Of a stretch of DNA of 64,000 nucleotides, positions 31,402-48,512 are shown one piece after another. Position 1 is the stretch's first letter. The number at the start of each line of letters is the position of its first letter. Below the pieces are notes generated by a model. It was not told where the DNA came from. It saw only the letters and a list, made by a program, of their open reading frames with translations, and searched no databases. The translations under genes and the position numbers were made by a program. This DNA comes from Candidatus Heimdallarchaeota archaeon (GTDB lineage Archaea > Asgardarchaeota > Heimdallarchaeia > Heimdallarchaeales > Heimdallarchaeaceae): contig JAHLWR010000003.1 in assembly GCA_019057815.1 (NCBI GenBank), forward strand, positions 1-64,000, given 5' to 3'.

Positions 31402-32013
31402 TTAATTAGCTTTCTTCATCGCTTCAATACCTAATTCAAATGCTTTCACGTTTGTCTCAATGTATTTTGAAGGTACTCTAGTTTTTAGTGCACTTTTTAA
31501 TTCTTCGACAGATAAGGGAAAATCTTTGATTTGTGACAAAGCACCCAAGAGTACAATGTTTTGTGCAAGAGCTAACCCAGCTTCTGATGCAAGTTTTTCT
31601 GCATTTATTCTGATTATACGAGCATCAAATTTAGATAGATTCTCATCTATTTTTTCATGAGCTAAAACAGCAGCATTTTTATCTTTTTTCCATGTAACGG
31701 GGTAAAGAACTGTTTTTGATGTAATTACTAGACCCCCAGGTTCAAGGTATTTCATATACCGTAAAGTTTCATTTTCTTCTAAACCAATTAGAGCTTTAGA
31801 ACAACCAACAGGAATTGTTGGAGAATGTAGCTCTTTACCTATTTTGAGGTTTGTAATAACTGAACCTCCTTTTTGAGCCATTCCATGTACTTCTGAACTG
31901 AGAACTCTGAGTCCTTTTTTCTGAGCAGCTATTGCAATAATGTCAGATATCGTTAATATACCTTGACCTCCGACGCCTACTAGAACCATTCTATATTCTT
32001 CTTCCATTTTCAT
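31402..32013 (-). CDS. iorB: Indolepyruvate:ferredoxin oxidoreductase beta subunit
   Basis: VGVGGQGILT, SEVHGMAQKGGSV, NIVLLGAL; start at the TGATG overlap with iorA. Confidence 0.93.
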   Translation of the reverse strand: MKMEEEYRMVLVGVGGQGILTISDIIAIAAQKKGLRVLSSEVHGMAQKGGSVITNLKIGKELHSPTIPVGCSKALIGLEENETLRYMKYLEPGGLVITSKTVLYPVTWKKDKNAAVLAHEKIDENLSKFDARIIRINAEKLASEAGLALAQNIVLLGALSQIKDFPLSVEELKSALKTRVPSKYIETNVKAFELGIEAMKKAN

Positions 32014-33863
32014 CACTCCACCTTTGAGATAGCTCCTGTTGGACATATCTGGGAACAAACAGAACATCCAGTACAAGTTGAAGAATCGATGACTGTATAT
32101 TGTTTACCTTTCGAATTGGTATCAATACTCCATGATATTGCAGGACATTGATATCTCACAATACATGTTCCACAAGCAATACATATTTCAGGATCTGTGT
32201 GGTAAACTTCGATTTTTTCTCCTTTTCTTCTAGTTCGTCTCCACCACTCATTTGCACAGATTTTTCGCATTATTATTACGGTTGGACCTTTATGTTTCAG
32301 AGCTTCCTCAATAGTTTTCTTACCTTTCTCGAAATCATAGGGGTCAAATTCAACTATATATTCAACCCCTAAACCTTTAGCAACATTTTCAATTGGGATA
32401 TCTTCTGTAGGGTTTGGTTGAAATCCTGTCATCGCTGTCATTCTATTATCAAGTATTAAAAGATTAAAGTTTGCTTTGTTATAAACTGCATTAGCTAAAG
32501 CAGGAAGTCCTGTATGGAAAAAGGTTGAATCACCAATTATCGCGAAAATAGGTTTATCTTTTATTACTCGAGAGAATCCGCTTGCCATTCCAATAGATGC
32601 TCCCATGCATACTATAGTATCTGATACCCATGGATCCAATGAATAACATCCAATATCTGAAGCGAAGATACCATCATTTTTCTTAACCACTTTTGAAAGT
32701 TCATAGAATGCAGCTCGGTGTTGACATCCTGCACAAAACAAAGGTGGTCTAAAAGGAATATATTCTTCTGTTTTTGTAACAGCAACCTCAATATCTTTAA
32801 AATCTGCAATTTTGCTACCAAACAAACTTTCTAACCCCTTTGCAACAAGGTACGCATTTAATTCATGATATCTTTTTGTAATTCCATTGCATTTTCCATG
32901 AATTTTTGGAGTAATTCCATTTTGTACAAGTAATGCTGAAATTCTATCCTCAAGGTAAGGGTCAACTTCTTCTATGAAAATAATGTTCTCTTTAGATTTT
33001 GCAAATTTAAGTATTGATTTTTCATCTAGGGGTGAAACTATACCTAGTTTGAGTATTGGGATATCTGCATTTAACATTAGTAGAGCATCTTTAACATATG
33101 AGTAAGAAATTCCTGATGTAATAATACCAAATTGGTTATCCTCTGGTCCTTCAATTCTAGTTAACCCACTCTCAGGAATCCATTCTTTGATTGTCTCATT
33201 TTTCTCTAGTAATTTAGGATGATTAGCTCTTGCAATTCCAGGTAAACACTTAAATCGCGGTGATTTTTCCAGCTCTCCATCTCGATAGGTTGTCTCGAAT
33301 TTGTTGAATTGAACATCAGCTCTAGCATGAGATATCCTAGTAGTTGTTCTTAATAACATTGGTATCTCAAATTTTTCACTTATTTCAAAAGCCATCTTTG
33401 TAAATTCTTTAGCCTCTTGTGGTGATGAAGGTTCTAATATAGGAAAATTAGCTGAAACTCCTAACCATCTTGAATCTTGTTCATTCTGACTACTAAAGCA
33501 GTGTGGGTCATCACCTACTACTGTTACGAAGCCTCCTTTACAACCCATATATAGCGCAGAATAGAATACATCTGCAGCTACATTTAGCCCTACATGTTTA
33601 CACGCAATCATAGATCTTACACCACTGATTGATGCAGCATAAGCTACTTCCATGGAAACTTTCTCGTTTGTACTCCACTCAGCATAAAACCCTAGTTCAG
33701 GAGCAGCTGCAATTAAAGCCATACTTATTTCACTGCTAGGTGTTCCTGGATAAGCAGCAAAAACTTGTACTCCAGCTTCTATGGCTCCTCTAGCTATTGC
33801 TTCATTTCCAAGAACTAAAACTCGTTTTTCCTCATTTTCTATGAGCTCTTCTACCCTTACCAT
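32013..33863 (-). CDS. iorA: Indolepyruvate:ferredoxin oxidoreductase alpha subunit
   Basis: LGNEAIARGA, YPGTPSSE, KHVGLNVA, SSQNEQDSR, RPPLFCAGCQH, GDSTFFH, C-terminal 2x[4Fe-4S]. Confidence 0.96.
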   Translation of the reverse strand: MVRVEELIENEEKRVLVLGNEAIARGAIEAGVQVFAAYPGTPSSEISMALIAAAPELGFYAEWSTNEKVSMEVAYAASISGVRSMIACKHVGLNVAADVFYSALYMGCKGGFVTVVGDDPHCFSSQNEQDSRWLGVSANFPILEPSSPQEAKEFTKMAFEISEKFEIPMLLRTTTRISHARADVQFNKFETTYRDGELEKSPRFKCLPGIARANHPKLLEKNETIKEWIPESGLTRIEGPEDNQFGIITSGISYSYVKDALLMLNADIPILKLGIVSPLDEKSILKFAKSKENIIFIEEVDPYLEDRISALLVQNGITPKIHGKCNGITKRYHELNAYLVAKGLESLFGSKIADFKDIEVAVTKTEEYIPFRPPLFCAGCQHRAAFYELSKVVKKNDGIFASDIGCYSLDPWVSDTIVCMGASIGMASGFSRVIKDKPIFAIIGDSTFFHTGLPALANAVYNKANFNLLILDNRMTAMTGFQPNPTEDIPIENVAKGLGVEYIVEFDPYDFEKGKKTIEEALKHKGPTVIIMRKICANEWWRRTRRKGEKIEVYHTDPEICIACGTCIVRYQCPAISWSIDTNSKGKQYTVIDSSTCTGCSVCSQICPTGAISKVE

Positions 33864-33931
33864 ACAAATCTAATCCGGAATTATTTTTACTCAATAAAAA
33901 AATTGTGTAAGGGAGATTAACTCTTTTTTGA

Positions 33932-35740
33932 TTAATCAATAATGTTACCTGTAATCTGAGTTTGGTAAAGATTGAAATATTTACCTTTCTTCTGTAGTAA
34001 TTGATCGTGTGTGCCTTCTTCCACAATTTTTCCTTCGTCAATAACAATAATCTTTGATGCACTCTTAATTGTGCTTAATCTGTGTGCAATAATGATTGAT
34101 GTTCGATTTTTTAAAATGTAATCAATTCCTTTTTGTATTAAGGACTCAGTGATTGGATCAATACTTGAAGTGCATTCGTCTAAAATTAAAATTCTAGGGT
34201 CTGCTATTACAGCTCTAGCAAGAGAAATTAATTGTCGTTGACCTAAGCTCAAACGAGAACCACCTTCTCTTACATCAGTTTTGTAGCCTTCTGGCATTTT
34301 TGTAATGTAACTGTGCAAACCAAGAGTCTCACAAACGCTGTAGACCTTTTCATCTTTAGCTTTCTTATTACCAAATTTCAGATTCTCGATAATAGTTCCA
34401 GAGAATAGGAACACATCTTGTGGCACTATAGCAATATTTTTTCTCAAATTCGTTAGTTCTATCTCCTTGATATTATACCCATCAACTAGAAGTTCACCCT
34501 TTGAGACATCATAATACCTAGCGAGAAGTTTAGTGATAGTCGTCTTTCCAGCCCCTGTACGACCAACAAGAGCAATGCTTTGACCAGGTTCTATTACAAG
34601 TTGAATATTATTTAAGATTGGAACATCAATATTATAATTAAAATCTACTGACTTAAATTCAATGTGTCCCTTGATGTTTTCTAATATAATAGGATTCTCA
34701 CAATTTTTGATTTTGACGTCTTCGTCAAGAATCTCAAAAATCCTTTCTCCCGCCGCGAATCCCGATTGAATCAAAGTGTAGAAAGTGAAAAGATTCATTA
34801 TTGGATTGAAGAACATACTCGAGTACATGAGGAAAGCGAAGAGTTCTCCATAAGTAATATCACCAAATTTTAGAGCGTAACCCCCATAAATCAAAATGAT
34901 TGTAGTTCCAATTGCTGCAACAACCTGAATTATTGGCATAAATAATGAAGATATTCCTGCAGCTTCAACATTGGCTGAAAAGGTTTCTTTGTTTAGATCT
35001 CGAAATTTCTGAATATTCTCATCTTCTCTGGAAAGTGTTTTTGTAACTTTTGCACTTTGTATTGTTTCTTGAAGATTAGCTGTGACTTTCGCAATTGCCA
35101 CTCTAGTTCTCCTGTATGCTCCTCTAACTCTGTTTTTAAAAACTATAACGACAATAAAAAGGATTGGGACTACGGTGAAAGTGAATAGAGTCATTTTGGT
35201 GTCATAAGAGAACATTATTCCTATAATCCATCCAAGGCTGAATAAATCTGCAAAAATATCAATTATCCCACTGGTTAAAAGCTCCCCAAGAGCGTCAACA
35301 TCATTAGTTACCTTCGAAATTGTTCTACCAGATTCTGTTTCTGTAAAGTATTCCTGACTCTGAAACTGTAATTTGGAAAATACATCATTTCTAATACGAA
35401 AAATTATTCTTTGACCTAATTTTGCAAACATGATACTTCTGGTAAGAGTAAGTACAAAATTAAGTACTATAAAGAGCAAAAAAAGCCCAGCCATTATAGC
35501 TATTTCGGGTTTAAAACCTATATTGTTTGGTTTGATAAATAAATCGATAATTTTCTGAAGGAGCATTGGAACAAGGGTAGCGAAAATGGAAGTTGCGATT
35601 ACAATGAGTAATAAAGAAATTGCTTCTGGTAGATAGTATCTGAAAAGTCCTAAAACCAACTTGAACAAATCTAAATCAGAATACTTCCTATCTCTCTCTT
35701 CTTCTTCTCGTCTCATTGCGCGAAAAGCATGCCAAGCCAT
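33932..35740 (-). CDS. Heterodimeric ABC exporter subunit (TMD plus NBD)
   Basis: GRTGAGKTT, LSLGQRQ, ILDECTSS, IAHRLST. Confidence 0.92.
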   Translation of the reverse strand: MAWHAFRAMRREEEERDRKYSDLDLFKLVLGLFRYYLPEAISLLLIVIATSIFATLVPMLLQKIIDLFIKPNNIGFKPEIAIMAGLFLLFIVLNFVLTLTRSIMFAKLGQRIIFRIRNDVFSKLQFQSQEYFTETESGRTISKVTNDVDALGELLTSGIIDIFADLFSLGWIIGIMFSYDTKMTLFTFTVVPILFIVVIVFKNRVRGAYRRTRVAIAKVTANLQETIQSAKVTKTLSREDENIQKFRDLNKETFSANVEAAGISSLFMPIIQVVAAIGTTIILIYGGYALKFGDITYGELFAFLMYSSMFFNPIMNLFTFYTLIQSGFAAGERIFEILDEDVKIKNCENPIILENIKGHIEFKSVDFNYNIDVPILNNIQLVIEPGQSIALVGRTGAGKTTITKLLARYYDVSKGELLVDGYNIKEIELTNLRKNIAIVPQDVFLFSGTIIENLKFGNKKAKDEKVYSVCETLGLHSYITKMPEGYKTDVREGGSRLSLGQRQLISLARAVIADPRILILDECTSSIDPITESLIQKGIDYILKNRTSIIIAHRLSTIKSASKIIVIDEGKIVEEGTHDQLLQKKGKYFNLYQTQITGNIID

Positions 35741-37557
35741 TAATATTCCTCCTTATGAATATCTTCTTTTTCTATTAGTGTAACTTTCTGGTTATCGTAA
35801 GATTCTGCAAGCGTGGCGTAAATATCTTGATAAAGACCTTTTTGATTTATTAAATCATCATGATTTCCATCTTGTATTATTTCTCCTTCATCAAAAACAA
35901 GTATTCTATCAGCATATTTTACAGAAGAAATTCTTTGACTGATTATTATCGTTGTTCTCCCTTTACTCAAAATATCAAGTGATTCTTGTATCAGAGCTTC
36001 AGTTTCTGCGTCAACAGAAGCAGTACTATCATCAAAAATAAGAAGAGATGGGTCTGTTAGAAGTGTTCGAGCAATGCTAATTCGTTGTTTTTGTCCACCA
36101 GAAAGCGTTATCCCTCTGTCTCCTACTCGAGAATCATAGCCTTCAGGTAATGAAATAATGAAATCATGAATGTTAGCTGTTCTTGCAGCTTTTTCTATTT
36201 CTTCATCTGATGCGTTAGGTTTTCCAAATGCAATATTTTCTTTCATAGAATCATTGAATAAGAAGGTATCTTGTAATACTAAGCCAATTTGTTTTCTTAG
36301 AGGTTTTAATTGGTAGTTTTTAATATTAATTCCATCAATTTTAATTTCACCTTGAATAGGATCATAAAATCGTTGCAATAGACTTACAAACGAACTTTTT
36401 CCACTTCCTGTACCTCCCATGAGAACAATTTTCTGTCCTGATGGTATAACAATACATATATTTCTCAATATTGGATTATTTTTCTCATATTCAAACCAAA
36501 CATTCTCATAGTTAATTTTACCTTGTAATTTAGGTGGAATAATAGCATCGGGGTCTTCTTGGATTTCTCTTTTAGCAGAAAGAAGTTCCATTAAACGATC
36601 TCCTGAAGCTAGAGCTCTTTGGACAACTCCAATTACCATAGTGAGTTGTCTAGTTGGCATAGGTAAAATCATTAAATAAAAAATAAAAGAAAGAAAAACA
36701 CCAAGTTTCATTGTGTTCTCTGCGACTGCAAAACCACCTAGAAACAACACTAGTGATGTTCCTAAACCGATAAGGAGAGTCATCGTTCCAAAATAAATAG
36801 ATCGATAAACTTGAGCCTTTATTCTTAAATTCATGTATTTTTCGTTTTCTGATGTAAATTTCTCAATTTCATTTTCTTCTTGAGCAAATCCTCTAACAAC
36901 ATGTATTCCTGTAACATTTTCCTGCAAAACAGACGTAACAACCCCAAACTGCGTCCTAGACTGATAAAATATTGGTCTTACTTTGTTGGAAAACCAAAAG
37001 ACTAACCAAATAAAAACTGGAAAGAATCCTACCATTATTAACCCTAATTTCCAGCTCATCACAATCATTGCTGTATAACTACCAACAAATAGGATAACAC
37101 CATTGAGAAGAAGGCGAAGAGTAAATGATATGAAACTAGAAATAGCGTTCAGATCAGTTGTTACTCTAGTCATGATTTGCCCAGTACTTTCCTCATCATA
37201 ATATTCCATTGTCAACTGTTGAAGAAGTTCATAGATATCGTCTCGAAGTTCTAAAGTGATTTTTTGGGCTAATAACGCGGCATAATAACGACTAATAAAT
37301 TGCAACAAACCCGCTATAATTGCAACAAGTAGGACACTTAACCCAAGAATCCATAATAAAAACAGATTTCCTTTAGGGATTGCATCGTCGACTATATATC
37401 TGATTAATTGCGGAGTAACAAGACCTATAAGTGCTGCTACAAATGAAACAACTGATACAAATAGTAAAAATAGTGGTCGTTTGAGTAGATACGGTTTAAG
37501 TATTCTAAAGATTTCTTTAGCTGAATGAATCCGTTCACGATTATCAAGCCAAGACAT
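35740..37557 (-). CDS. Heterodimeric ABC exporter subunit with degenerate ATP site
   Basis: GGTGSGKS, LSGGQKQR, IFDDSTAS (E to D), ISQRISS (H to Q). Confidence 0.92.
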   Translation of the reverse strand: MSWLDNRERIHSAKEIFRILKPYLLKRPLFLLFVSVVSFVAALIGLVTPQLIRYIVDDAIPKGNLFLLWILGLSVLLVAIIAGLLQFISRYYAALLAQKITLELRDDIYELLQQLTMEYYDEESTGQIMTRVTTDLNAISSFISFTLRLLLNGVILFVGSYTAMIVMSWKLGLIMVGFFPVFIWLVFWFSNKVRPIFYQSRTQFGVVTSVLQENVTGIHVVRGFAQEENEIEKFTSENEKYMNLRIKAQVYRSIYFGTMTLLIGLGTSLVLFLGGFAVAENTMKLGVFLSFIFYLMILPMPTRQLTMVIGVVQRALASGDRLMELLSAKREIQEDPDAIIPPKLQGKINYENVWFEYEKNNPILRNICIVIPSGQKIVLMGGTGSGKSSFVSLLQRFYDPIQGEIKIDGINIKNYQLKPLRKQIGLVLQDTFLFNDSMKENIAFGKPNASDEEIEKAARTANIHDFIISLPEGYDSRVGDRGITLSGGQKQRISIARTLLTDPSLLIFDDSTASVDAETEALIQESLDILSKGRTTIIISQRISSVKYADRILVFDEGEIIQDGNHDDLINQKGLYQDIYATLAESYDNQKVTLIEKEDIHKEEY

Positions 37558-37736: not shown

Positions 37737-38549
37737 ATGAAACATTTCAGAGTACTTGAATTAATTTTAATTTTGATGCTTTTAATGGGAACTTTAGGAT
37801 TTAATACAACATTCGCAGACACAGATGAAGAAGAAATTGATTGGGGGTATACTGGATTAATTAAAACTCAATCAGACAGATTAAAATTAGAAAGTAGTTA
37901 CGATCCATATTGTATACAACTACATCTTTTCTTATTGAATGATACTGAAGAAGAAGAACCAACAATACGTCTAGTAGCAATATATGGCATTCGACCAATT
38001 TGGAATGCTCCTCTCTACTCTGAAAATTTTGATATTACAAGTGCAGGTGCGATATATAAATTCAAACTTCATGCTGATAAAGGAGTTACTTGGACTAATA
38101 TCACAACTTTTGATGTAAATAACACTGAATACAATCCTGATATTGCTCTTTTTATAGAGATAATTCGAATTAGATTATATAAGCATCCTGAATTTTTTGG
38201 TGGGTCAGAAGAAACTATGACTGCAAATTTAACACAAACAATTCATTTAGCAAATCTTACCACAAATGTAGGCGAAGTTGGATTGTGGGAGCAAGTTAGA
38301 AAAGATGGAACAATTATACGAGGAACATTCCATACTTACGGCTATGAAGAACCATTATATGAGGATGAGGAAATCGGTTATAAATGGCCTGATTATAATA
38401 TAACAATTGCCACTGATTTATATCGTTCGTCACTTCCACGTATTCATTCATTTAGAGTAGCATTTCCTTTCCTTTCCTTTTCTTTCGCACTAGGAACAGC
38501 AGCAATATTAATTACACTATTTTCTAACATCAGGAGAAGAAAAAGATGA
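37737..38549 (+). CDS. Secreted, C-terminally anchored surface protein (paralog A)
   Basis: Signal peptide, acidic start, many NxT sequons, C-terminal TM plus RRRKR. Confidence 0.75.
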   Translation: MKHFRVLELILILMLLMGTLGFNTTFADTDEEEIDWGYTGLIKTQSDRLKLESSYDPYCIQLHLFLLNDTEEEEPTIRLVAIYGIRPIWNAPLYSENFDITSAGAIYKFKLHADKGVTWTNITTFDVNNTEYNPDIALFIEIIRIRLYKHPEFFGGSEETMTANLTQTIHLANLTTNVGEVGLWEQVRKDGTIIRGTFHTYGYEEPLYEDEEIGYKWPDYNITIATDLYRSSLPRIHSFRVAFPFLSFSFALGTAAILITLFSNIRRRKR

Positions 38550-39313
38550 AAAAGCAATACCTATACCTTATTACACTTCTTTCTGTAATTTTAGTTGTTT
38601 CCACATCATTTTGCAGTATTTTACCTGTAAATGCAGCTGAAGAAGAAGAAGAAGAATGGGACTTTACTGGAGAAATCAGTATTGATAGTGACATTTTTTA
38701 TAGAGCAATGTATAATCCAATAGAGGACGGAGGTCTAAACGAAACAATTAATGGATATGAAAGACCTGTTATTTTCGTTAAAATCATAGGTTTAGATACT
38801 GATGCTAACGCAAAAATGGATATGTATATTGGGTTATATGGTATAATTACTTACGATGTTGATCATCTGGGATATGAAGAAAATACAGATTTGTTCATTA
38901 TAATAATGGGTACAACATGGAAATTAAGAATCCCTGAAGAATCACCACTTCACTGGGAAGTTCTTTACTACCCAAATCCAGTGTATATGGAAATAAATCC
39001 TAAAAGAAAAATTCCAATCATGTTCATTAATTTGACTAAAAACGTAGGTGTTAATCTAGAATACCAAATAGAGACTGGGAAAACTGCAGAAATTGGCAAT
39101 TTTACAACATTTGGATCAGGAAACCCACTACATCCCGATGTCCCCGCTTTTCCAGAATACAATACCACTGTTGCTCTATATACTGACACAATTCTTATCG
39201 GTGAATATACAAATACAGGATTCTTTGATAGTACATTGAGTTTTATAACTATCATATCTCTATCCTTCGTGACTCTCTATATCTGGAGAAAGAAAAGAAA
39301 AGCAGCAAAATAA
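38546..39313 (+). CDS. Secreted, C-terminally anchored surface protein (paralog B)
   Basis: Signal peptide, shares motifs with paralog A, C-terminal TM plus RKKRK; ATGA overlap. Confidence 0.75.
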   Translation: MKKQYLYLITLLSVILVVSTSFCSILPVNAAEEEEEEWDFTGEISIDSDIFYRAMYNPIEDGGLNETINGYERPVIFVKIIGLDTDANAKMDMYIGLYGIITYDVDHLGYEENTDLFIIIMGTTWKLRIPEESPLHWEVLYYPNPVYMEINPKRKIPIMFINLTKNVGVNLEYQIETGKTAEIGNFTTFGSGNPLHPDVPAFPEYNTTVALYTDTILIGEYTNTGFFDSTLSFITIISLSFVTLYIWRKKRKAAK

Positions 39314-39364: not shown

Positions 39365-40105
39365 GTGCTGATGTCAATAATTAACGTTGATATTTATTTA
39401 GCTAGTATATTGCTCACAATAATCAGTTCTCTTATAATACTCACACTCATAATCCCTAATTTCCTTAAGCTTACAAGAAAAACTAAAATATTGATACAAT
39501 CGTTTCTTCTTCTTCTATTTCTTGTAGGTTTAATTTTATTTTCACAAGGAATTAAGGATATGTACTTTTTCCTTGGAGCAGCTTGTGGAATAGGTTTCAT
39601 GTTAAATGGTTTAATACAGAAAAATAATCACAAATATATTTCATTTATCATGTTTTTTATTTCATTTTCATTCGTATTTCTCTCCTTAGGACAGACACTC
39701 CTCTTTTTAATGACGTTAATCTTTTCATATGCTTTATTTATTTCTTTAACTGCTTTTAAATTATTTAAAGAAAGACCTTTAGATATACTAGAGTCAAGCG
39801 AAACGAATTCTATAAAAATCATAAAGTTGGTTTTACTAATTGTTTTTGGGACAATATTCGGATACATTATTAGTATTAATTTCACTGATTTCATTGAAAT
39901 CTTAACGTTAGAGGTCACTGATTTCATTGAAATCTTAACATTAGAGGGACCAATAATCAAACATGTTATCATATATTCCACTTTTTATACTACTGATTTG
40001 TTTATTATTCTAAGCGCATTCTTTCTATTTATATGTGCAACAATTTTTATTGACATTTCTTTAAAAACACGAATGAAAAGGAAGGAAGAGCAATGGTACT
40101 ACTAA
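39365..40105 (+). CDS. Divergent NuoJ-like membrane protein with extra N-terminal helices
   Basis: YFFLGAACGIGFMLNGLIQKNN..FVFLSLGQTLL resembles NuoJ TM1-3; position ahead of K-L-M-N-like genes. Confidence 0.5.
   Translation: MLMSIINVDIYLASILLTIISSLIILTLIIPNFLKLTRKTKILIQSFLLLLFLVGLILFSQGIKDMYFFLGAACGIGFMLNGLIQKNNHKYISFIMFFISFSFVFLSLGQTLLFLMTLIFSYALFISLTAFKLFKERPLDILESSETNSIKIIKLVLLIVFGTIFGYIISINFTDFIEILTLEVTDFIEILTLEGPIIKHVIIYSTFYTTDLFIILSAFFLFICATIFIDISLKTRMKRKEEQWYY
39882..39947 (+). repeat. In-frame 33-nt tandem duplication (1 mismatch)
   Basis: tcactgatttcattgaaatcttaac(g/a)ttagagg twice, encoding TDFIEILTLEV/TDFIEILTLEG. Confidence 0.95.
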
Positions 40106-40371
40106 TTCACCTAATTGCACTAGCTTGCATCAGCTTCATAGTAGGTTTATTTACATTATTATATTCTTCAAACACACTAAAAACCTCTTTTGGTTTTTTA
40201 CTTCTTTACACTTCTGGGATACTTTTTGTATCTAGCTTTTCTATCACTCCACAAATTCTAACGTTCTTCGGTCTTGGATTCTTTACTATATTAATGATAT
40301 TTTACTTCAATTTTCATGATTACTTGATCTTTAGTAATATAAAAAAGGAAAAGGGTGAAACAGATGTTTAA
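40093..40371 (+). CDS. Divergent NuoK/MnhC-like small membrane protein
   Basis: 92 aa, 3 TMs; HLIALACISFIVGLFTLLYSSNTLK resembles the NuoK N-terminus. Confidence 0.55.
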   Translation: MVLLIHLIALACISFIVGLFTLLYSSNTLKTSFGFLLLYTSGILFVSSFSITPQILTFFGLGFFTILMIFYFNFHDYLIFSNIKKEKGETDV

Positions 40372-42337
40372 CTTAGCTTCGCTTCTTGGAATCCAAATAC
40401 TCATTCTTTTTCTTATCCCTTCGTTAAAATGGTTATTATCAAAAATTAGCATTTTAAAGAATGAAAAACCTAAGTTTACTCTTGGAGCTTTTCTTTCAGC
40501 AAACATTGTCTTTACAATTAGTTATTTTATAATCTTTTTAATCAGCTATTTCAAGGGTAACGATCTTATCCTATCGAAATTTGAATGGTTTAAAATAGGT
40601 AACCTTTCCTTTGAAATAGGATTTAATGTTTCATTGTTGCAGATATTGTTTTATTTTGTAATTATGGTATCTGTAAGCATATTCGTAATATATTATGAAC
40701 ATAGATTCCAGTTATGGCAAAGATATTTAGAAGTTAGATTGCCCTATCTTCTGGTAGCTCTAATATTCTTCATTTTCTCTCCAAACATCTTTCAACTTCT
40801 CTTATCTCTGCTAGTGATTGAATCTTTATTAATTGAGGTAACTCGTTCTCGAGATTTGAATAATGAATCTGATACAAATCATAGTATTAGACATACATTA
40901 TTCACATTGATTCTTAGTAATATATTCATTTTTACATCGTCAATACTGTTGCTTTCAAAAATTTTTACATCGTCAATACCGTTGCTTTCAAAAACAATGT
41001 CATTTGATTTTCAGATTATTCAAGCATATTTATCAGCGGAAGAATCCAATCTATATACATCTAATTATTATTCCGTTATTGCCATTCTTTTTTTCATAGG
41101 TATTATCGCTAAAACTTCTCTTTTTCCATTCCATTCATGGAAAAATAAGGTGTGTGCGAGTGAATCTCATGCAAATTTCATATTTTTGATAATTTATTTC
41201 CCTTTAACATTATTTGCTGTATTAAGCACTCCTCTAATTTTTATAATTAAGGTCATTCCCTCGTTTATTACTTGGTATACTATAGTAATTAGTTTAATCC
41301 CAGCACTATTTATTCAGTTTATTCAGGAGGAAAAAGAATTACTCAGATTCGAATCATCTGTTTACATAGGTCTAACTTTTTTCGCTGCGGGAATTGGTAG
41401 CCTAAACTCAGCTTTTCACATGTTACTTGTTTATCCAATTGTTTTTGGCATTATGATTATTTTTTCTTCTCTTAATAATGAAAAACCTTCACAAGTAGAA
41501 AGAACAACAAGAATTAAGTTTTTAGAGACTTTACGGATATCAAACTGGTTTATTGCTTTTATAGTTATTATTGGTGTAGCACCTTTTAATAGTATAATAT
41601 TAGCTGTTTCCCAATCATTGGAAACAACAAAAGTAGCATTTCCTCCTGGCTTATTTGCAATAGGTCTACTACTTTTATCACTATTATTTTCTTCAAATGT
41701 CCATAAGACAAGATCTAAGTTGAAATCACTGAAGCGGATAGATGGCCATCTAGATGTTGTTGTAGTGAGTATTCTATCAACATTACTAATTCTTCTTGCA
41801 TTAATTTTTCCAATATTCAATCTACTTCCACTTTACTCTATTGAGGTAGAAGTTGTACCACATATACTTGCGACAGTTATCTCCCTTGTTATACTTTTTT
41901 TGATTATATTAGTAATGCATGTTATAATACCGAAAAAATTCACTCAACTTACTTCAAGAATGACAAAGTTATCGTTGTCCGTTATAAATTTTATAAGAAA
42001 AGTATACTATTTCGATTTTATGTTTAGATTTTTCAAGTGGTTTTACGAAAAGTCAGTAATTCCATTCTTCTTGTGGGTGAACACAAATATTGTTGAAGGT
42101 TTTATCATAGGTTTTCTCTACATGTACATTTCTGTGTTTTTATCTAATCTAGTAACGACAATAGAAATTTTTCTGATTAAAAGCCTATTCCCCGTGGTAA
42201 AACGATTCTTCATAAAATTTTCAGTGTTTTTACGAAGATTCGAAAAAACTACCATAAAAAACCAGATTCTAGTAATTTTCTCGTTTTTAGCATTAATGAT
42301 TTGTATATTTCTTATTATATTATATGTAGGTGAATAA
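40355..42337 (+). CDS. Divergent NuoL/MrpA-like antiporter-fold subunit
   Basis: FEWFKIGNLSFEIGF, IAKTSLFPFHSW, GVAPF, C-terminal KVYYFDFMF amphipathic helix. Confidence 0.75.
   Translation: MKQMFNLASLLGIQILILFLIPSLKWLLSKISILKNEKPKFTLGAFLSANIVFTISYFIIFLISYFKGNDLILSKFEWFKIGNLSFEIGFNVSLLQILFYFVIMVSVSIFVIYYEHRFQLWQRYLEVRLPYLLVALIFFIFSPNIFQLLLSLLVIESLLIEVTRSRDLNNESDTNHSIRHTLFTLILSNIFIFTSSILLLSKIFTSSIPLLSKTMSFDFQIIQAYLSAEESNLYTSNYYSVIAILFFIGIIAKTSLFPFHSWKNKVCASESHANFIFLIIYFPLTLFAVLSTPLIFIIKVIPSFITWYTIVISLIPALFIQFIQEEKELLRFESSVYIGLTFFAAGIGSLNSAFHMLLVYPIVFGIMIIFSSLNNEKPSQVERTTRIKFLETLRISNWFIAFIVIIGVAPFNSIILAVSQSLETTKVAFPPGLFAIGLLLLSLLFSSNVHKTRSKLKSLKRIDGHLDVVVVSILSTLLILLALIFPIFNLLPLYSIEVEVVPHILATVISLVILFLIILVMHVIIPKKFTQLTSRMTKLSLSVINFIRKVYYFDFMFRFFKWFYEKSVIPFFLWVNTNIVEGFIIGFLYMYISVFLSNLVTTIEIFLIKSLFPVVKRFFIKFSVFLRRFEKTTIKNQILVIFSFLALMICIFLIILYVGE
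40928..40993 (+). repeat. In-frame 33-nt tandem duplication (1 mismatch)
   Basis: atttttacatcgtcaatac(t/c)gttgctttcaaaa twice, encoding IFTSSILLLSK/IFTSSIPLLSK. Confidence 0.95.
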
Positions 42338-43817
42338 TGTGATCGCAGCAACTATAGCAATTCTAATCTTCCTGTTACTTCCCTATCTAAAGGCTTTTTT
42401 CTTCATATTTTATAGAAGAAAAAACATCAGTTTTATCACACTTTTCTTCATTTGTATAGCACAAATTGCTACTTTAACATTTTTATGGTCTTTGTTCATT
42501 ATTTATTTCAATTCAGAATTGATTTCATATGTAATTCCTACCTCTACAAATACAAATTCAGGTTTTGTAATATCTATCAACGCAATGAATTTAATCTTAA
42601 TATCCTCAATTCAAATCGTTATTATTGCTTTCATTTTACAATATAATCCAAAAAGAACCAAGAGCTTTTATGTAAGTTTATTTTTAGCTGAAGCTGGACT
42701 GACTGGTGCTTTAATATCTGCCAATATACTCTTTTTCCTATTTTCGTTGGAAATTCTGCTTATATCTGTCTATTTCTTAATAACTTATAAAAAGAAGGAA
42801 ATGAATATAATATCAACTGGGTATTTTATTTTCTCTCAAGGGGCACTACTTATACTATTTATTACATATATCTATTATTGGTCATTAGCAAGAAATATAA
42901 GTCCTTCAGTTAATTTCTCCAAAGAAAACATCAAACTAGTCTTAAATTATGTAGACGAAATAAAAATTCGACCATCTCTCTATATGTTGGTAACAGGTTG
43001 GTTAATTCTCTTACCCACTTTTCCATTTTATGCTCTGGTTAAAGATAGCGCATCTAAAGGTAACAATATGGGGACATTCATGTTAGTAGGGTGCTTATAT
43101 CCTTCTTTTTACTATTTCTTTTATTATTGGGGTTTTGATTTTCTTCCACTTCTGAAAGAGCATGAACAAGTTAAACTGTACATTTTCATAGTTCAATTTG
43201 TTTCACTATTTCTGTTCCTTTTACTTTCTCTAAAGGAAAGGAGTTTGAAGAAAATTTTCATATATCTGACTTTTATACAAAGTCCTGTCATTTTTTTGGG
43301 CTTTTTTACAGGTACACCAACCGCAATAATTGCAACTTTGTATTATATTCTCTTCTTGCCAATATCGAGAGGTTTAGGTTTTCTTTTCGTTGATGTATTG
43401 GAAACATCGTTTGGAACCACTGATAATGAGAATTTAAAAGGATTATTCAAATATTATCCTGAACTAAGAACTCCAGCTATCATTTCCATTGTTAGTTTCG
43501 TTTTAGTTCCTCTAGTTCCGTTTTTTATCCAGTTACCTATTTTCATTGAATCTATCGTAATAACTGGTCACAATCTTTTTTATCTTCTTTTTGCAATACT
43601 AATATTAATTGCTAATATAGTAAATATTGCTCTGGTTTTCACAAGTATTCAAGATTACTTATCTCACAACATTTCAGATGTAATCATTCAATCCGAGAAA
43701 CTCAGACTAAACAATAAACTTGTTTCTCTCAAAGTAATTGCACTGATTTATATTATTTTGAATATATTTCCATTTATCCTTATAGAGTTGTTAAATAAGT
43801 ATGGAGGTCTTTCATGA
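42330..43817 (+). CDS. Divergent NuoM-like antiporter-fold subunit
   Basis: NILFFLFSLEILLISVYFLI, PTFPF, SLKKIFIY, FGTTDNENLKGLFKYYP. Confidence 0.72.
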   Translation: MNNVIAATIAILIFLLLPYLKAFFFIFYRRKNISFITLFFICIAQIATLTFLWSLFIIYFNSELISYVIPTSTNTNSGFVISINAMNLILISSIQIVIIAFILQYNPKRTKSFYVSLFLAEAGLTGALISANILFFLFSLEILLISVYFLITYKKKEMNIISTGYFIFSQGALLILFITYIYYWSLARNISPSVNFSKENIKLVLNYVDEIKIRPSLYMLVTGWLILLPTFPFYALVKDSASKGNNMGTFMLVGCLYPSFYYFFYYWGFDFLPLLKEHEQVKLYIFIVQFVSLFLFLLLSLKERSLKKIFIYLTFIQSPVIFLGFFTGTPTAIIATLYYILFLPISRGLGFLFVDVLETSFGTTDNENLKGLFKYYPELRTPAIISIVSFVLVPLVPFFIQLPIFIESIVITGHNLFYLLFAILILIANIVNIALVFTSIQDYLSHNISDVIIQSEKLRLNNKLVSLKVIALIYIILNIFPFILIELLNKYGGLS

Positions 43818-45313
43818 GTCACTTTCAAGAAATAATTCTTTACCTTCTGCCTGTTGAGATACTTGTTTTAGGCATTATTATTGTATTGCTCTTTGGATTA
43901 TTTCAAAAAGCATTTTTAACTGTTTTTCCAGTTTATAAGAGTCGAATGAGAATTCTTTATGGATATATTGCTGTTATATTCAATTTAATCTCATTTATTG
44001 CAATGTTCTATATATTGAACCCATTTAATAATCCCAATTTGATATTCTATGAGTTTGATATTTCACCATTTTTCTGCGCTATCTATTCGGTATTTTATGC
44101 TGCAACAACTGTTTTAATATTTCTTTTAATTGTAGAAACAAAGTATAATTCAGAGGAAAGTTACATTGCATTTATTGGAATTTTACTAGTTCAGATCTCA
44201 GGATATTTCATACTAGCTTCCACTTCGTGGATTTTGATTTATTTTGGTTTTTTAGTCCTTTTCATAGGAGTTAATCTTCTTTTGAGATATGTATTCTCTT
44301 TTAAAGAATTAAAAGAAAAGAAATCTCACATTAACTATACATTAATCGGTGGTTTAGCTCTATGTCTCATGTTTTTGGGAATTGCGTTTCAGTATATCGG
44401 TAATGAATCCTTTGAATTGTACATTGCATATGGAAGTCAAGAGATCTGGAATTTTCTTAGTATAGCTTTTATATTCTCATCCCTCTTGATTTTAATTGGT
44501 TGTCCTCCATTTCATTTTTGGTTTTTCAGTATAACGGATAATGAATTTACATCTCTTTCTAACTTACTTCTAATTGTACAAAGAATTCTTCCTATCTCTA
44601 TTCTCTTAAAGTATTCACTTGCAATAAGAAGTGAAGCTTCCGCTTTTTTTATTTTGTTTTTTATAATAATAGGTGGTATCTCTTGTCTATGGGGAGCAAT
44701 TGCATCAATGACCGTTGATAGTATTAGAAAATTGATTCATTATATTAGCTATATCCATTTAGGAATAATGTTTTTGAGTTTCTCAGAGATTTTTTCTGCG
44801 AAAGAAGACCTAGAATTACAGGAAATTCTACAATCTATATCATTTAATATTATTTGGTACGTTATCCTCTTTTCATTAGCATATTCTTCAATTAATGTTA
44901 TTTTTAATCAATACAAAACTGATAAGATTTCTTTATTGAAGGGTCTGGGAAGAAAAGGAGTCTTAAGATTTTCTCTTGTTTTACTCAGTCTATTCTTTCT
45001 TTTTGTCTTTCCACTAACTGAAGTGCTTTTTGCTAGATTTCTTTACTTTCAAATATCATTAACTTTTCAATGGTTTGTTATTATATTTGTCTTGATAATT
45101 ACAATAATACTTTCAAGTGTTTATATTGTACGATATATGAGATTAGCATTTTTAGAACCTCCTGTAACAAGTAAGAAAGCTAAAAATATTGAGATGGGAG
45201 TGAATATGGGATTCTTATTAGCACTTTTCCTTGCTATAGTAACCACGATATTTGCTTTAACAATCTTCGATCTTTGTAAGATAATGGCAGAATCTCTTAC
45301 TCTAAATCTTTAG
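43814..45313 (+). CDS. Divergent NuoN-like antiporter-fold subunit
   Basis: LLPVEIL, GCPPFHFW, DSIRKLIHYISYIHLG, LKGLGRK, YIVRYMRLAFL. Confidence 0.75.
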   Translation: MSHFQEIILYLLPVEILVLGIIIVLLFGLFQKAFLTVFPVYKSRMRILYGYIAVIFNLISFIAMFYILNPFNNPNLIFYEFDISPFFCAIYSVFYAATTVLIFLLIVETKYNSEESYIAFIGILLVQISGYFILASTSWILIYFGFLVLFIGVNLLLRYVFSFKELKEKKSHINYTLIGGLALCLMFLGIAFQYIGNESFELYIAYGSQEIWNFLSIAFIFSSLLILIGCPPFHFWFFSITDNEFTSLSNLLLIVQRILPISILLKYSLAIRSEASAFFILFFIIIGGISCLWGAIASMTVDSIRKLIHYISYIHLGIMFLSFSEIFSAKEDLELQEILQSISFNIIWYVILFSLAYSSINVIFNQYKTDKISLLKGLGRKGVLRFSLVLLSLFFLFVFPLTEVLFARFLYFQISLTFQWFVIIFVLIITIILSSVYIVRYMRLAFLEPPVTSKKAKNIEMGVNMGFLLALFLAIVTTIFALTIFDLCKIMAESLTLNL

Positions 45314-45351: not shown

Positions 45352-46332
45352 TTGGTATTAGTGACAGAAACGAAATTTGATTTCTCGAGTGATGTAAAAG
45401 AAATTAATGCATATTTGACTAACTTAAGAAATCATGCTCCTTATGATGATGAAGTTAATAATCTTATATATGCTATACTTTATAAAGGTGGTAAAAGAAT
45501 TCGCCCTTTAATCTGTTTGTTATCATATGAAATGATATCTTCAAAACCCCGAGAAGAGCAACATTTCGCTGCAGCCTGCTCTATAGAAATTTTACATAAC
45601 GCTTCTCTTTTAATTGATGACCTTTTTGATAAAGACATTTATAGAAGAAAAGAAAAATCCTTTTATTTGAAACATTCAACATTTGCTGCTTTATCAGTTT
45701 CCTATGCTATGAGCAGTTTAGCCTTGAGTTTAGCAACTCAGACTCAAATTATGCAAATAGTTGAAGAACTTGTGAATGCAATAAAGAAGCTTTCATCATC
45801 ACTGTTCTTAGAGCAAAAGCTCAGGATTGAAGGAAGGGTGATAACAAAGAAAGAAGCTCTACAGCTTATTGATATGAAAACTTCATGTTTATTTGAAGCT
45901 ACTTCTGTGATTGGTGTTATTCTTGGAACAGCTTCTAAAAAAGACCAAGCAAACATGAAAAAATTTGGAAAGATGTTTGGTAGAGCATTTCAGTTGAGGG
46001 ATGACCTTCTATCTTTCACATCAACAACTGAAGAACAAGGAAAATCTGGTGTAGAGACGGATTTAAGTAATAAAATTCAAACTTATATTGTTCTAGAAGC
46101 AATGGAGAACGTCAACGAAGAGGATAAGGTGATTTTAGAGGATTATTATGTTAATAAAAGGAAATATCATGTAACTCGAATTAAAGAAATAATCACAAAT
46201 TCACCAGCTTTAAGGATAGTACAAAAAAAGATGGAAAATTGTATTCAGGAAGCTATAGCAATATTGCAGGAATTTCCTAGCTCAACATCTAAAGATAAAC
46301 TAATAGCAATAACAAATCTTCTTCAAGTTTAA
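45352..46332 (+). CDS. Polyprenyl (trans-isoprenyl) diphosphate synthase
   Basis: GGKRIRP, EILHNASLLIDDLFDKD..RR, KTSCLF, GRAFQLRDD. Confidence 0.9.
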   Translation: MVLVTETKFDFSSDVKEINAYLTNLRNHAPYDDEVNNLIYAILYKGGKRIRPLICLLSYEMISSKPREEQHFAAACSIEILHNASLLIDDLFDKDIYRRKEKSFYLKHSTFAALSVSYAMSSLALSLATQTQIMQIVEELVNAIKKLSSSLFLEQKLRIEGRVITKKEALQLIDMKTSCLFEATSVIGVILGTASKKDQANMKKFGKMFGRAFQLRDDLLSFTSTTEEQGKSGVETDLSNKIQTYIVLEAMENVNEEDKVILEDYYVNKRKYHVTRIKEIITNSPALRIVQKKMENCIQEAIAILQEFPSSTSKDKLIAITNLLQV

Positions 46333-46348: not shown

Positions 46349-47419
46349 TCATTCTGGTCTTACGCCTTCAATATATTCATTAAACCATTGATTAGCAGTA
46401 TATCTATTGGTTGATATGGGAGGAGCTTTAAATCCATAAGAACTGATTGAAGTCATAGGTCCTCCATGAGCCCTATTTATTGCTAATTTAGTTGCTCTTA
46501 TAACATCTATTAGAGTAGCAGCTCCATTGGGACCATCTAATGTTTCCAATCTCATATCAATTTTCACAGGCATCCCCATAAATCCTTCACCTAATATCCA
46601 AAAGTGACCTATTCTCCTGTTTCCAAGAAACTCTAAATAATCTGAGGTTCCGCTAGCAATGTTTATTTTATTTTGGGTAGCATCTTGAATTGTTCTTTCT
46701 TTTACTTTTCTTTTGTATTGCTTTCGATCATCGTCAAGAGTGTTAAGAGTTTCAAGACCACCAGCAACATCAAGCTGATACGTATCTTTGATAGTTACAC
46801 CTTGTTCTTTAAGTACTTCTAAAAACCCTTTGTGTAGCACTGTACCTCCAGCTAAAGATTGTAAATCGTCTCCAATGAGACACAAATTAGCTTTTTTGAA
46901 TTTCTGAGCCCATTGAGGATTACTAGCTATCAAAGTTGGAGTACAGTTTATAAAAGCTACTTCTGCATCAAGAGCTGCTTGAGCATATGCTTTAACTGCA
47001 AGTTCTGCGCCTGAGGGTAAAGCACAGATTAGAATTTCTGCTTCTGCTTCTTTTAATTTCTTAGCCAAATCCACATGATCTCCCTCTGCTATTTGAATTA
47101 CTTCTCTAAGCGTGTCAGATAAACCATCTAGAACTGGACCTTTACAAACAGAAACGCCATAATTGTCTATTTCTACAAACTTTGGAGTACTATTAATGGG
47201 AGCAAAAATTGCTTCAGTGATATCTTTACCTATTTTAGAAGTATCGACATCAAAAGCAGCAACGATTACAATATCCTTTACTTCATATCCCAAGATAGTA
47301 GGATGAAGTAAAAAATCTTTTTTATTTTCATAAGCTTTTATGTATTCTATGCCTTGTAAAACACCTGAAGCTATGTTTCCTATTCCAGCCAAAGCGATTC
47401 TTATTTCTCTTTCAATCAT
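46349..47419 (-). CDS. Divergent myo-inositol-1-phosphate synthase paralog
   Basis: AGIGNIAS, VAAFDVD..KIGKD, GDDLQS, GTSDYL, DGPNGAA, FKAPP. Confidence 0.82.
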   Translation of the reverse strand: MIEREIRIALAGIGNIASGVLQGIEYIKAYENKKDFLLHPTILGYEVKDIVIVAAFDVDTSKIGKDITEAIFAPINSTPKFVEIDNYGVSVCKGPVLDGLSDTLREVIQIAEGDHVDLAKKLKEAEAEILICALPSGAELAVKAYAQAALDAEVAFINCTPTLIASNPQWAQKFKKANLCLIGDDLQSLAGGTVLHKGFLEVLKEQGVTIKDTYQLDVAGGLETLNTLDDDRKQYKRKVKERTIQDATQNKINIASGTSDYLEFLGNRRIGHFWILGEGFMGMPVKIDMRLETLDGPNGAATLIDVIRATKLAINRAHGGPMTSISSYGFKAPPISTNRYTANQWFNEYIEGVRPE

Positions 47420-47429
47420 TTTCTCATCC

Positions 47430-48512
47430 TCAGTTTGTGATATCTCCTCTAATGAATTTCTCTACCAGTTGGAATGCCTCTGAATCTGGTATTTGTTTAG
47501 GAGGATGTTTGAAGAAATAACTGGAAACACCGACTAAAGGTCCTCCTATACCTCTGTCTTTTGCAATCTTCAAAGACCTTATAACATCTATCATAACTCC
47601 CGCGCTATTTGGTGAGTCTTGAACTGATAATTTCAGTTGTATTTTTAGAGGTTGTTCTCCGAAATTTTTACCCTTCAACCATATATAACAGATTTTTTCA
47701 TCGTTTAGAAATGGAACATAGTCACTTGGACCTATTCTTGTAGGAACTTCATAAGGAATCATGCTTGTTACAGCTTCTGTTTTTGATATCCTTTTAGTAG
47801 TTAATCGGTATTCCTTCTTCATATTCTCAAAATCAGTGTTCCCTCCAATGTTTAACTGAAATGTTTCATCCATTTTAATTCCTCGATCATGAGCTAGACT
47901 AACTAGCATTCGATGTAAAATGGTCGCTCCTAATTGTGATTTAATATCATCACCAGCTAATGGTATTTTCTTATCAGTAAATTTCTGTGCCCACTCTGTG
48001 TTAGAAGCGATAAATGCTGGAATACCATTTGCGAAAGCTACATTTGAATCCAAAGCTGCTTGAGCGTACTTTTGGGTAGCTATTTCACTACCAACAGGTA
48101 AAAAATTGATTAATACGTCAGCTTGTGATTCCTTTAACGCGTCTGCGATATTTACCGAGGTTATTTCCTTAGGATCATAACAGTGGAAAGACTCTTTCAT
48201 ATGGGGTGCAACCCCATCATCAATATGTCCTGGTTGAACAGTGACATCCTTATTGGGGACATCTGAAAATTTCGCACAGCAATTGGGTTTAGCCCATATT
48301 GCTTCTGAGATGTCTTTACCTATCTTTTTAGTACTAACCTCAAAAGCTGCAACAACTTCAATATCTGAAATATGATACTCACCGAATTTTACATGCATGA
48401 TACCAGGAACATAGTCACGTGCATCTGCATTTTTATAGTATTCTAAGCCTTGAACTAAAGCTGAAGCACAGTTACCTAACCCAGCTATAGCTATTCGTAC
48501 TTTTTTAGTCAC
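47430..48512 (-). CDS. ino1: myo-Inositol-1-phosphate synthase
   Basis: GLGNCASALVQG, GDDIKSQLGATILH, QLNIGGNTDFENM, KRISKT, GPSDYVP, DSPNSAG, FFKHPP. Confidence 0.95.
   Translation of the reverse strand: MTKKVRIAIAGLGNCASALVQGLEYYKNADARDYVPGIMHVKFGEYHISDIEVVAAFEVSTKKIGKDISEAIWAKPNCCAKFSDVPNKDVTVQPGHIDDGVAPHMKESFHCYDPKEITSVNIADALKESQADVLINFLPVGSEIATQKYAQAALDSNVAFANGIPAFIASNTEWAQKFTDKKIPLAGDDIKSQLGATILHRMLVSLAHDRGIKMDETFQLNIGGNTDFENMKKEYRLTTKRISKTEAVTSMIPYEVPTRIGPSDYVPFLNDEKICYIWLKGKNFGEQPLKIQLKLSVQDSPNSAGVMIDVIRSLKIAKDRGIGGPLVGVSSYFFKHPPKQIPDSEAFQLVEKFIRGDITN

Follow-up and report, generated by a model that had tools for sequence, protein, structure and literature searches.

A stretch of 64,000 nucleotides from a Candidatus Heimdallarchaeota archaeon of the family Heimdallarchaeaceae (GenBank assembly GCA_019057815.1, contig JAHLWR010000003.1, positions 1 to 64,000 of the forward strand; hereafter the window) contains, at positions 39365-45313, five consecutive membrane-protein genes in the order nuoJKLMN, for which sequence comparison and conserved gene order show descent from a genuine complex I membrane arm. 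This arm has been cut off from its redox partner and most of the charged residues of its proton axis are gone, yet it is kept under purifying selection across the family and has surface proteins of its own. Judging from these sequences, we give even odds (a probability of about 0.5) to the reading that the arm now serves as a non-pumping structural membrane platform. An earlier, sequence-only reading of the window had proposed a repurposed assembly rather than a respiratory pump, and this proposal is supported by the residue losses, by the selection acting on the genes, and by the presence of separate complex-I-related gene sets elsewhere in the genome.

Descent of the arm from complex I

About 400 Asgard genomes were searched, comprising 31 genomes of the Heimdallarchaeaceae (family f1, including the genome of the window, which belongs to genus g1), three sister families (f2-f4), and other lineages. 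All genes of the operon lie on the plus strand of the window. The J-like gene (39365-40105; 246 amino acids, seven predicted helices) occupies the NuoJ slot of the operon and is followed by a K-like gene (40093-40371; 92 amino acids, three transmembrane (TM) helices), whose product is a putative NuoK derivative devoid of both channel glutamates. The L-like gene (40355-42337; 660 amino acids), with a retained PFHxW motif and TM7 lysine (K253), the M-like gene (42330-43817; 495 amino acids) and the N-like gene (43814-45313; 499 amino acids) are assigned by sequence to NuoL, NuoM and NuoN, respectively. Upstream are two genes encoding surface proteins, S1 (37737-38549) and S2 (38546-39313), and 38 nucleotides after the N-like gene starts a gene for a polyprenyl diphosphate synthase (IDS; 45352-46332; PF00348, 153 bits). 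Neighboring frames overlap by 4 (S1/S2), 13 (J/K), 17 (K/L), 8 (L/M), and 4 nucleotides (M/N), and the 13-nucleotide J/K overlap is retained at all loci examined. Apart from S1, S2, and the prenyl synthase, no other genes adjoin the arm; Pfam and NCBIfam scans of the locus found no nuoA-I, nuoH, hydrogenase, or mrpEFG gene there, as had been noted from the sequence alone. No other part of the window is as AT-rich as the operon region, whose GC content is about 29-31%. Since about 8% of random codons are stops at this composition, simple arithmetic gives a chance of about 1e-24 for an open frame of 660 codons, and the frames are therefore not due to chance.

Subunit identity was examined with orthologs gathered from at least 20 related genomes, from which family alignments were built. 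As proteins, M and N match PF00361 (Proton_antipo_M) with 36.3 and 50 bits, respectively; L was recovered by this model in a six-frame search of the genome (25.9 bits, cut-off 21.5), and hmmscan of the L protein returned nothing at E <=0.01. The N-family profile found Nad2/NuoN as its top match in the PDB (E 1.6e-19), the L-family profile found NdhF/NuoL (E 1.6e-20), and the best NCBIfam model for M was NDH_I_M. Aligned with hhalign to canonical NuoL, the L family gave a probability of 98.2% over 618 columns, reaching the C-terminus. This comparison places the predicted lateral helix HL and the last TM helix (TM16) at 41939-42337 of the window, and the L family could be aligned both to the GFDxxY-type start of HL and to the motif preceding TM16, as a NuoL/ND5 identity requires. 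In a maximum-likelihood tree, the NuoN clade includes the orphan N proteins (support 100), whose stem has a length of 2.75 substitutions per site; the window M, with a very long branch, clusters with NuoM (support 88), and the orphan L proteins form a separate clade adjoining NuoL. The stem branches of the orphans measure 2.7-2.75 substitutions per site, compared with 0.3-0.7 in canonical clades. At the level of sequence, the derivation of L, M, and N from NuoL, NuoM, and NuoN is thus confirmed.

The two small subunits are more divergent. K aligned with canonical NuoK over its full length with an hhalign probability of 53-61% (best E 8e-5) and had no Pfam match (PF00420); three of its best five PDB rows were NdhE, ND4L, and NuoK (E 0.85-5.3), none of them significant alone. 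K can therefore be described as weakly NuoK-like. Comparison of J with NuoJ yielded hhalign probabilities of 0.3-4.5%, a weak signal for which NuoJ was still the best of five alternatives, and no match was found for J in Pfam (including PF00499) or, with the J profile, among PDB sequences. The AlphaFold2 (AF2) model of J, with seven predicted helices and a mean predicted local distance difference test (pLDDT) score of 70, had E. coli NuoJ as its top Foldseek match, a weak one (E 0.78, probability 0.80), and a weak NuoJ lead (0.78-0.80) was also obtained in the ESM Atlas; VIA-align of the model against 48,161 chains returned generic helical bundles only. Because no significant sequence or fold match was obtained, the label J rests on gene order. 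The possibility that J is a remnant of NuoH or NuoA was rejected (hhalign probability <=0.5%). Among 1.84 billion proteins, the J profile recovered 16 cluster representatives; where their sources are named, these are hypothetical proteins of Candidatus Heimdallarchaeaceae or Heimdallarchaeota, the same two names that were returned for the family proteins in general. The five overlapping, intact open reading frames put forward in the sequence-only reading are confirmed, and their nuoJKLMN identity stands for L, M, and N by profiles and tree, is weaker for K, and holds for J by position only.

The arm is confined to one family. With the J-like profile, a single intact copy was recovered from the genome of the window and from 28 of 30 further family genomes (29/31), and no copy from 370 other Asgard genomes. 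The window and genus g3 (about 25 genomes) are in perfect synteny, from the pair of ABC exporter genes through S1-S2-J-K-L-N-IDS to the pair of myo-inositol-1-phosphate synthase (MIPS) genes, with M missing in g3. Among the sampled genera, M was seen in g1 only and is missing from the loci of g2-g5, and genera g2 and g5 have J-K-L-N without S1 and S2. Genus g4, represented by two complete genomes (G004 and G007), has an L gene of 151-152 amino acids that aligns to L-profile positions 529-652, which correspond to HL and TM16, and retains the conserved Ser, Glu, and Gln of the family. The lateral-helix strap has thus been kept in g4 though the pump core was discarded, which points to an architectural role.

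The ancestral state of the locus can be recognized in the sister families. In G030 the gene order is H-J-K-L-x-M-N-IDS, with Pfam scores of 66-297 bits, and the same layout is found in G032, G029, and G035. Homologs of the prenyl synthase adjoin the canonical nuoHJKLMN genes or lie <=3.5 kb from them in G030, G032, G029, and G025, and MIPS genes are also found near the canonical nuo locus in G030 and G032. Because canonical nuoHJKLMN genes take up the corresponding position beside this prenyl synthase, the orphan arm is recognized as derived, by position, from a genuine complex I arm. A search with PF00146 detected a complex-I-type NuoH in every genome of f2, f3, and f4 (280-337 bits; a partial match of 154 bits in the fragmented G037), whereas f1 genomes, save G004, contain the hydrogenase type only (197-237 bits, full-length matches); in the genome of the window, the single PF00146 gene lies in a hydrogenase cluster. 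The nuoH gene has been lost from the locus, and complex-I-type NuoH has been lost from the genomes of the Heimdallarchaeaceae, G004 excepted.

Two further observations concern these genomes. G004 contains an additional complete nuo-like operon (G004:C1:2760184-2771433; order J-K-B-C-D-H-I-M-L-M-N-A) located about 80 kb from its orphan arm, which holds the sole complex-I-type NuoH of the family and could represent either retention or horizontal acquisition. In G030, a bitopic protein of 235 amino acids is encoded between nuoL and nuoM (L028:11213-11920); it belongs to no Pfam family. Its ectodomain, in which N-x-S/T sequons are frequent, lies between two TM helices, the C-terminal one of which is followed by a basic tail. 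The protein is a candidate for a lineage-specific accessory subunit of archaeal complex I. A relationship of this protein to S1 and S2 was considered and rejected (hhalign probability 0.3%).

Loss of the proton axis and selection on the operon

The fate of the pump residues was followed with the E. coli MG1655 NuoJ-N sequences as the numbering reference, on which the positions of the key residues were verified, and with hidden Markov model (HMM) alignments made in both directions. In the K family, hhalign comparisons that included E. coli NuoK place Gly or Phe at the E36 position and reveal no acidic counterpart of E72, which bears out the absence of both glutamates seen by eye in the window. 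In the L family (n=17), the position of E144 is occupied by Ile, Phe, Leu, or Val in 17/17 members, K229 (window K253) is invariant, H334 is replaced by Gln or retained as His (Glu in one member), and both K342 (TM8) and K399 (TM12) are lost. The hydrophobic TM5 position and the retained TM7 Lys agree with what had been read from the window sequence, to which the family alignment adds a refinement: a conserved Asp or Glu (window E156) is found three residues past the canonical TM5 Glu, in a register anchored by an upstream SPN/ADN motif, and a Glu-Lys pair may thus have been retained in L.

The pattern is similar in the two other antiporter-like subunits. HMM mapping of the window M shows a retained TM5 Glu (E144), replacement of TM7 K234 by Leu, of TM8 K265 by Pro, and of H348 by Leu, and no counterpart of TM12 E407, so the three losses originally proposed for M (TM7 Lys, TM8 Lys, TM12 Glu) and the retained TM5 Glu all held. 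In the N family (n=20), E133 is replaced by Val, Ile, or Leu in 20/20 members, K158 is lost, and K217 is replaced by Leu, Gln, Asn, or Val in a register set by the conserved PPFHxW of TM7; the K247 position (TM8) is a conserved Gln-Arg/Lys and K395 (TM12) is variable. Regarding N, the sequence-only reading was right about the loss of the TM5 Glu and TM7 Lys and about the TM8 Arg, which is Arg or Lys family-wide; the Arg that it placed at the TM12 position is present in the window, but this position varies in the family.

At columns that are polar and invariant in canonical subunits, the orphans carry the same residue in 20% (N), 29% (L), and 16% (M) of cases, and several buried Ser, Gln, and Tyr positions have turned into Leu, Ile, or Val. 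The residue loss extends beyond the genome of the window to the whole family, and the axial Glu and Lys residues proved to be mostly erased also under proper HMM alignment, which could have overturned the initial assignment made by eye. The arm consequently lacks the residue sets of functional pumps, namely the Glu/Lys/His axis of the antiporter subunits and Glu36/Glu72 of NuoK.

Despite these losses, the operon is maintained. The ratio of non-synonymous to synonymous substitution rates (dN/dS), calculated by the Nei-Gojobori method for 12 close pairs, mostly from genus g3, is 0.20-0.33 for J, 0.06-0.30 for K, 0.15-0.29 for L, and 0.10-0.22 for N, with 0.10-0.33 for S1/S2 (S1 0.22-0.33) and 0.02-0.22 for flanking genes. 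In the overall comparison, K, L, M, and N have values of 0.06-0.33 and flanking genes 0.04-0.19. Within genus g1, three metagenome contigs share the S1-S2-J-K-L-M-N order, and M is intact on them, with 90-95% identity and dN/dS of 0.13-0.24; the corresponding values are 0.19-0.23 for L, 0.17 for N, and 0.17-0.33 for K. Premature stops are limited to one in about 33 loci (in J of contig L052), with none inside the frames of the 29 genomes. Selection on about 6 kb of coupled frames, originally suggested by their being open, is therefore corroborated by dN/dS values far from 1 and by intact genes in 29/31 genomes. Across the family, identity to the window amounts to 17-38% for the arm compared with 52-85% for the flanks. 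Overall, divergence came in a burst on the stem, after which purifying selection acted in a moderately relaxed form, and the arm is not decaying.

Two in-frame tandem duplications of 33 nucleotides (2 x 33), found with Tandem Repeats Finder on the plus strand and unrelated to each other, are present in the operon. The one in J (39882-39947) is present in contig L054 and absent in contig L052, which points to a recent origin and to variation within the genus; the one in L (40928-40994), between TM6 and TM7, is an insertion that no ortholog in the L alignment shares.

Surface proteins and the possible role of the arm

S1 and S2 can be aligned with each other and share the motifs W-D-[FY]-x-G, NLT, GNFTT[FY]G, and P-x-YN-[VI]-[ST], as expected of paralogs. 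In each, the signal peptide is followed by a beta-rich domain (about 200 amino acids), a TM helix near the C-terminus, and a tail of basic residues (Arg/Lys in S1), and three N-glycosylation-type sequons are conserved. Neither protein belongs to a Pfam or NCBIfam family. In the AF2 model of S2 (pLDDT 78), a beta domain is predicted between a helix at the N-terminus and a TM helix at the C-terminus. Every genome matched by the S1/S2 profile contains exactly two copies, which adjoin each other and the J-like gene; such genomes belong to genera g1, g3, and g4 (28/30 family genomes), and 0/370 other Asgard genomes gave a match. The association of the arm with the upstream surface proteins, raised as one possibility in the sequence-only reading, is strongly backed by this exclusive co-occurrence. 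Since g2 and g5 have the arm without S1 and S2, the surface proteins depend on the arm and not the reverse. In g4, two PKD/Ig-like domains (PF22352, 33 bits) are inserted in the S2 ortholog, in keeping with a location outside the cell.

The C-terminus of the S1 orthologs (window 38400-38549) is characterized by a conserved LPR(T)HS-x-x-V-x-FPF motif, a TM helix, and a cluster of Arg and Lys (RRRKR). This layout recalls an archaeosortase/exosortase sorting signal; no NCBIfam CTERM model matched it, and the sole Exosortase_EpsH-like match in the genome (G000:C11:470-853, 21 bits) is sub-threshold.

In the history of the locus, nuoH was lost, M was lost in most genera and the L pump core in one genus, and most of the charged axis of NuoK, NuoL, NuoM, and NuoN gave way to hydrophobic residues, whereas the fold motifs and the lateral-helix strap of L were retained. 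In the model that we propose, the products would still assemble as a J-K-L-(M)-N slab clamped by the L helix, and such a slab would be neither a redox-driven nor an Mrp-type proton pump. It would instead offer a rigid platform for S1 and S2, which are lineage-specific, single-pass, and probably glycosylated, and whose C-terminal TM helices might pack on the slab as the supernumerary single-TM subunits of mitochondrial complex I do. In genera lacking S1 and S2, the slab would have kept an older role. In its full form, a 'pseudo-pump' made of a rigid slab of 40-60 helices held by the NuoL lateral-helix strap and carrying a surface glycoprotein heterodimer S1/S2, this model is offered tentatively, and we regard it as somewhat less probable than not.

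Several findings weigh against a purely structural platform. The occurrence of the arm without S1 and S2 in g2 and g5 implies that anchoring these proteins is not its sole or original retained role. The fold of S2 is unrecognised: Foldseek gave no meaningful match, VIA-align matched the terminal helices only, and no usable match was found in the ESM Atlas. L has the TM7 Lys, an acidic residue in TM5 one helical turn off the canonical site, and His or Gln in TM8, and N has Arg or Lys in TM8; some ion chemistry may therefore persist, above all in L. Finally, J is the least constrained gene in genus g1, where its dN/dS of 0.64-0.92 is near-neutral, and in contig L052 (Ga0114920_10003425), J (at 2183-2884) contains an in-frame stop at the position matching Tyr67 of the window J. 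The other six operon genes of this contig are intact, and the stop is either a nonsense allele or a sequencing error.

The leftover charges could also mean that L, together with M in g1, still transports an ion or another small solute; the arm would then be a remnant secondary transporter or channel, similar to a reduced Mrp that receives no redox input, a reading that we consider unlikely. The invariant TM7 Lys, the TM5 Asp/Glu, the TM8 His/Gln, and the PFHxW broken-helix motif of L would suit such a function, as would the TM5 Glu of M and the conserved TM8 Gln-Arg/Lys of N. It is also in keeping with this alternative that the PF00361 proteins of the genome comprise the arm and the hydrogenase pair only, and hence that the genome has no Mrp antiporter. 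However, with the loss of the TM8 and TM12 lysines of L, of the key residues of N except that in TM8, and of both glutamates of K, the lateral axis and the exit half-channels would be interrupted; g4 has dropped the whole L core but kept the rest of the module, M is missing in most genera, and no MrpB/C/E/F/G-like genes are found at the locus. A different use of the sealed hydrophobic antiporter fold, in lipid or isoprenoid metabolism or transport together with the prenyl synthase, the inositol-phosphate synthases, and the ABC exporters, seems improbable. The prenyl synthase gene lies on the same strand directly downstream, the two MIPS genes and the exporter pair flank the operon, and hydrophobic residues stand in place of the polar axis; the IDS/MIPS setting is nevertheless ancestral, being found also beside fully charged nuoHJKLMN, and thus carries no information on a new function, and in G002 the arm is present without an adjoining IDS.

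Two other sets of complex-I-related genes in the genome of the window bear on the question of a remote partner. On contig C43 (L006:4444-16056), a group-4 [NiFe] hydrogenase is encoded with its own nuoH-A-J-K-L-M, followed by hypD and a flavodoxin gene and then by nuoC-D-I-B; hypF/hypE-like and hycI-like genes are nearby, the Pfam scores of the complex are 187-235 bits, and the large subunit carries the NiFe cysteine motifs RACGICS and DPCFSC. On contig C27 (L043:7371-9853), orphan nuoB-C-D-I genes, with no membrane subunit gene nearby, lie between TldD/PmbA peptidase genes and a gene for an M32 carboxypeptidase; their NuoD lacks the NiFe cysteines and presumably also the His of the PxxHG loop. 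This nuoBCDI set shares no flanking genes with the A-C-D cluster of G030 and may be a soluble, repurposed remnant of the Q-module. The arm is thus not the only J-N set of the genome, as the C43 hydrogenase has its own, and it does not simply serve a remote nuoBCDI, as the C27 type is absent from 17 arm-bearing genomes. That the arm anchors a remote redox module, either the C27 NuoBCDI or, as an extension of its short arm, the C43 hydrogenase, is accordingly given a low rating because there is no NuoH or NuoA to dock a Q-module and the distributions are uncoupled. Among the family members that have it, the orphan NuoD type shows 80-88% identity, which together with the missing membrane gene on C27 and the hydrogenase complex found in nearly all family genomes would favor an anchor, but it occurs in only 12/31 genomes, its rate and that of the arm are about threefold apart (judged from identities across the family), and the hydrogenase already has a membrane set with canonical Pfam scores.

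The least probable reading, in our view, is that of a slowly decaying relic, kept open by read-through transcription to the prenyl synthase or by chance. The low identity of the arm relative to its flanks, the loss of M in most genera and of the L core in one, and the near-neutral rate, single stop codon, and tolerated 33-nucleotide duplication of J would be expected of a relic. This is opposed by the dN/dS of 0.06-0.33 in many independent close pairs, by frames of 92-660 codons that are open at about 30% GC in 29 genomes with conserved start/stop overlaps, and by the persistence of invariant Gly, Pro, and aromatic motifs together with charged residues that are conserved in this family only.

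Relation to known systems and neighboring genes

The P-module of complex I (NuoJ/K/L/M/N, equivalent to ND6/ND4L/ND5/ND4/ND2; structures 3RKO/7NYR from E. coli and 4HE8 from T. thermophilus) is the closest relative of the arm, with the same gene order, subunit-specific homology, the PFHxW motif in TM7, the long lateral helix and TM16 of L, and a locus that is the positional ortholog of nuoHJKLMN in the sister families. It differs in that the arm has no NuoH, NuoA, or Q- and N-modules, that most proton-axis residues and both NuoK glutamates are replaced, that it evolves very fast, that M is optional and the L core is optional in one genus, and that S1 and S2 have been added. By sequence, the arm is homologous to the P-module, yet it falls outside the functional class that this module represents. 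To our knowledge, the complex I, Mrp, and membrane-bound hydrogenase (MBH) modules so far described all keep the charged axis and move ions.

The Mrp antiporter (MrpA-G; 6Z16, 7D3U) resembles the arm in being redox-independent and in combining antiporter-like with small NuoJ/K-like subunits, and chains of MrpD and of MBH subunit H are among the weaker PDB matches of the N profile. In contrast to Mrp, no MrpB/C/E/F/G gene adjoins the arm (no genome-wide search for MrpE/F/G was made), and its L and N profiles match NuoL and NuoN better than MrpA and MrpD. Mrp function also needs conserved Glu, Lys, and His residues, which are missing in the arm. An antiporter subunit combined with a lineage-specific accessory protein in a non-respiratory setting is likewise found in the CO2-uptake modules DabB-DabA and, in cyanobacteria, NdhD3/NdhF3-CupA, and the L profile matched DabB2 weakly (E 8.8e-6). 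These systems keep and use the charged axis, and their partners are cytoplasmic and carbonic-anhydrase-like. In the arm, the axis is largely erased, the partners S1 and S2 are predicted to be extracellular and anchored and have an unrecognised fold, and no DabA or CupA gene adjoins the locus (no genome-wide search was made for them). The supernumerary single-TM subunits of mitochondrial complex I, which are bitopic with an outer soluble domain and one TM helix on the arm, offer an analogy only, as no homology was found.

Group-4 [NiFe] hydrogenases with a short membrane arm have been described in the same organisms, the Heimdallarchaeia (Appler et al., bioRxiv 10.1101/2024.07.04.601786), and the C43 hydrogenase matches these short-armed complexes. 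They include catalytic subunits, NuoH, and NuoA, whereas the orphan arm is separate and degenerate, with no hydrogenase subunits in its operon; no mention of it was found in that study (Appler et al., bioRxiv 10.1101/2024.07.04.601786). Full-text literature searches returned no description of a complex I arm in Heimdallarchaeia that lacks nuoH and has its residues erased, and in a published genome-wide survey of Nuo clusters, 'incomplete' sets were merely counted.

If its subunits assemble, the arm would be a natural 'dead' antiporter scaffold that separates the residues required for the fold from those required for pumping, and, as the strap outlives the L pump core, it would show the role of the NuoL lateral helix without coupling. 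It would also constitute an unannotated, Heimdallarchaeaceae-specific membrane and surface complex in the closest archaeal relatives of eukaryotes. Should the pseudo-pump model prove true, it would be one of the few documented cases in which an entire bioenergetic membrane module was exapted for a function in structure or at the cell surface, parallel to the gain of accessory single-TM subunits by mitochondrial complex I. Metabolic reconstructions should not take PF00361 matches from this locus as evidence of a capacity for complex I or Mrp function.

A scan for sigma-70-type promoters and terminators found 43 sites compared with 54 expected, the model being uninformative for an archaeon. On the minus strand and divergent from S1, the region 32013-37557 of the window encodes two paralogous fused ABC exporters (ABC_membrane + ABC_tran) and a protein similar to POR/TPP-type 2-oxoacid:ferredoxin oxidoreductases with a ferredoxin domain; these genes are 55-79% conserved across the family. 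Past the prenyl synthase, also on the minus strand, tandem MIPS paralogs are located at 46349-48512; they are syntenic order-wide, and the downstream copy diverges more.

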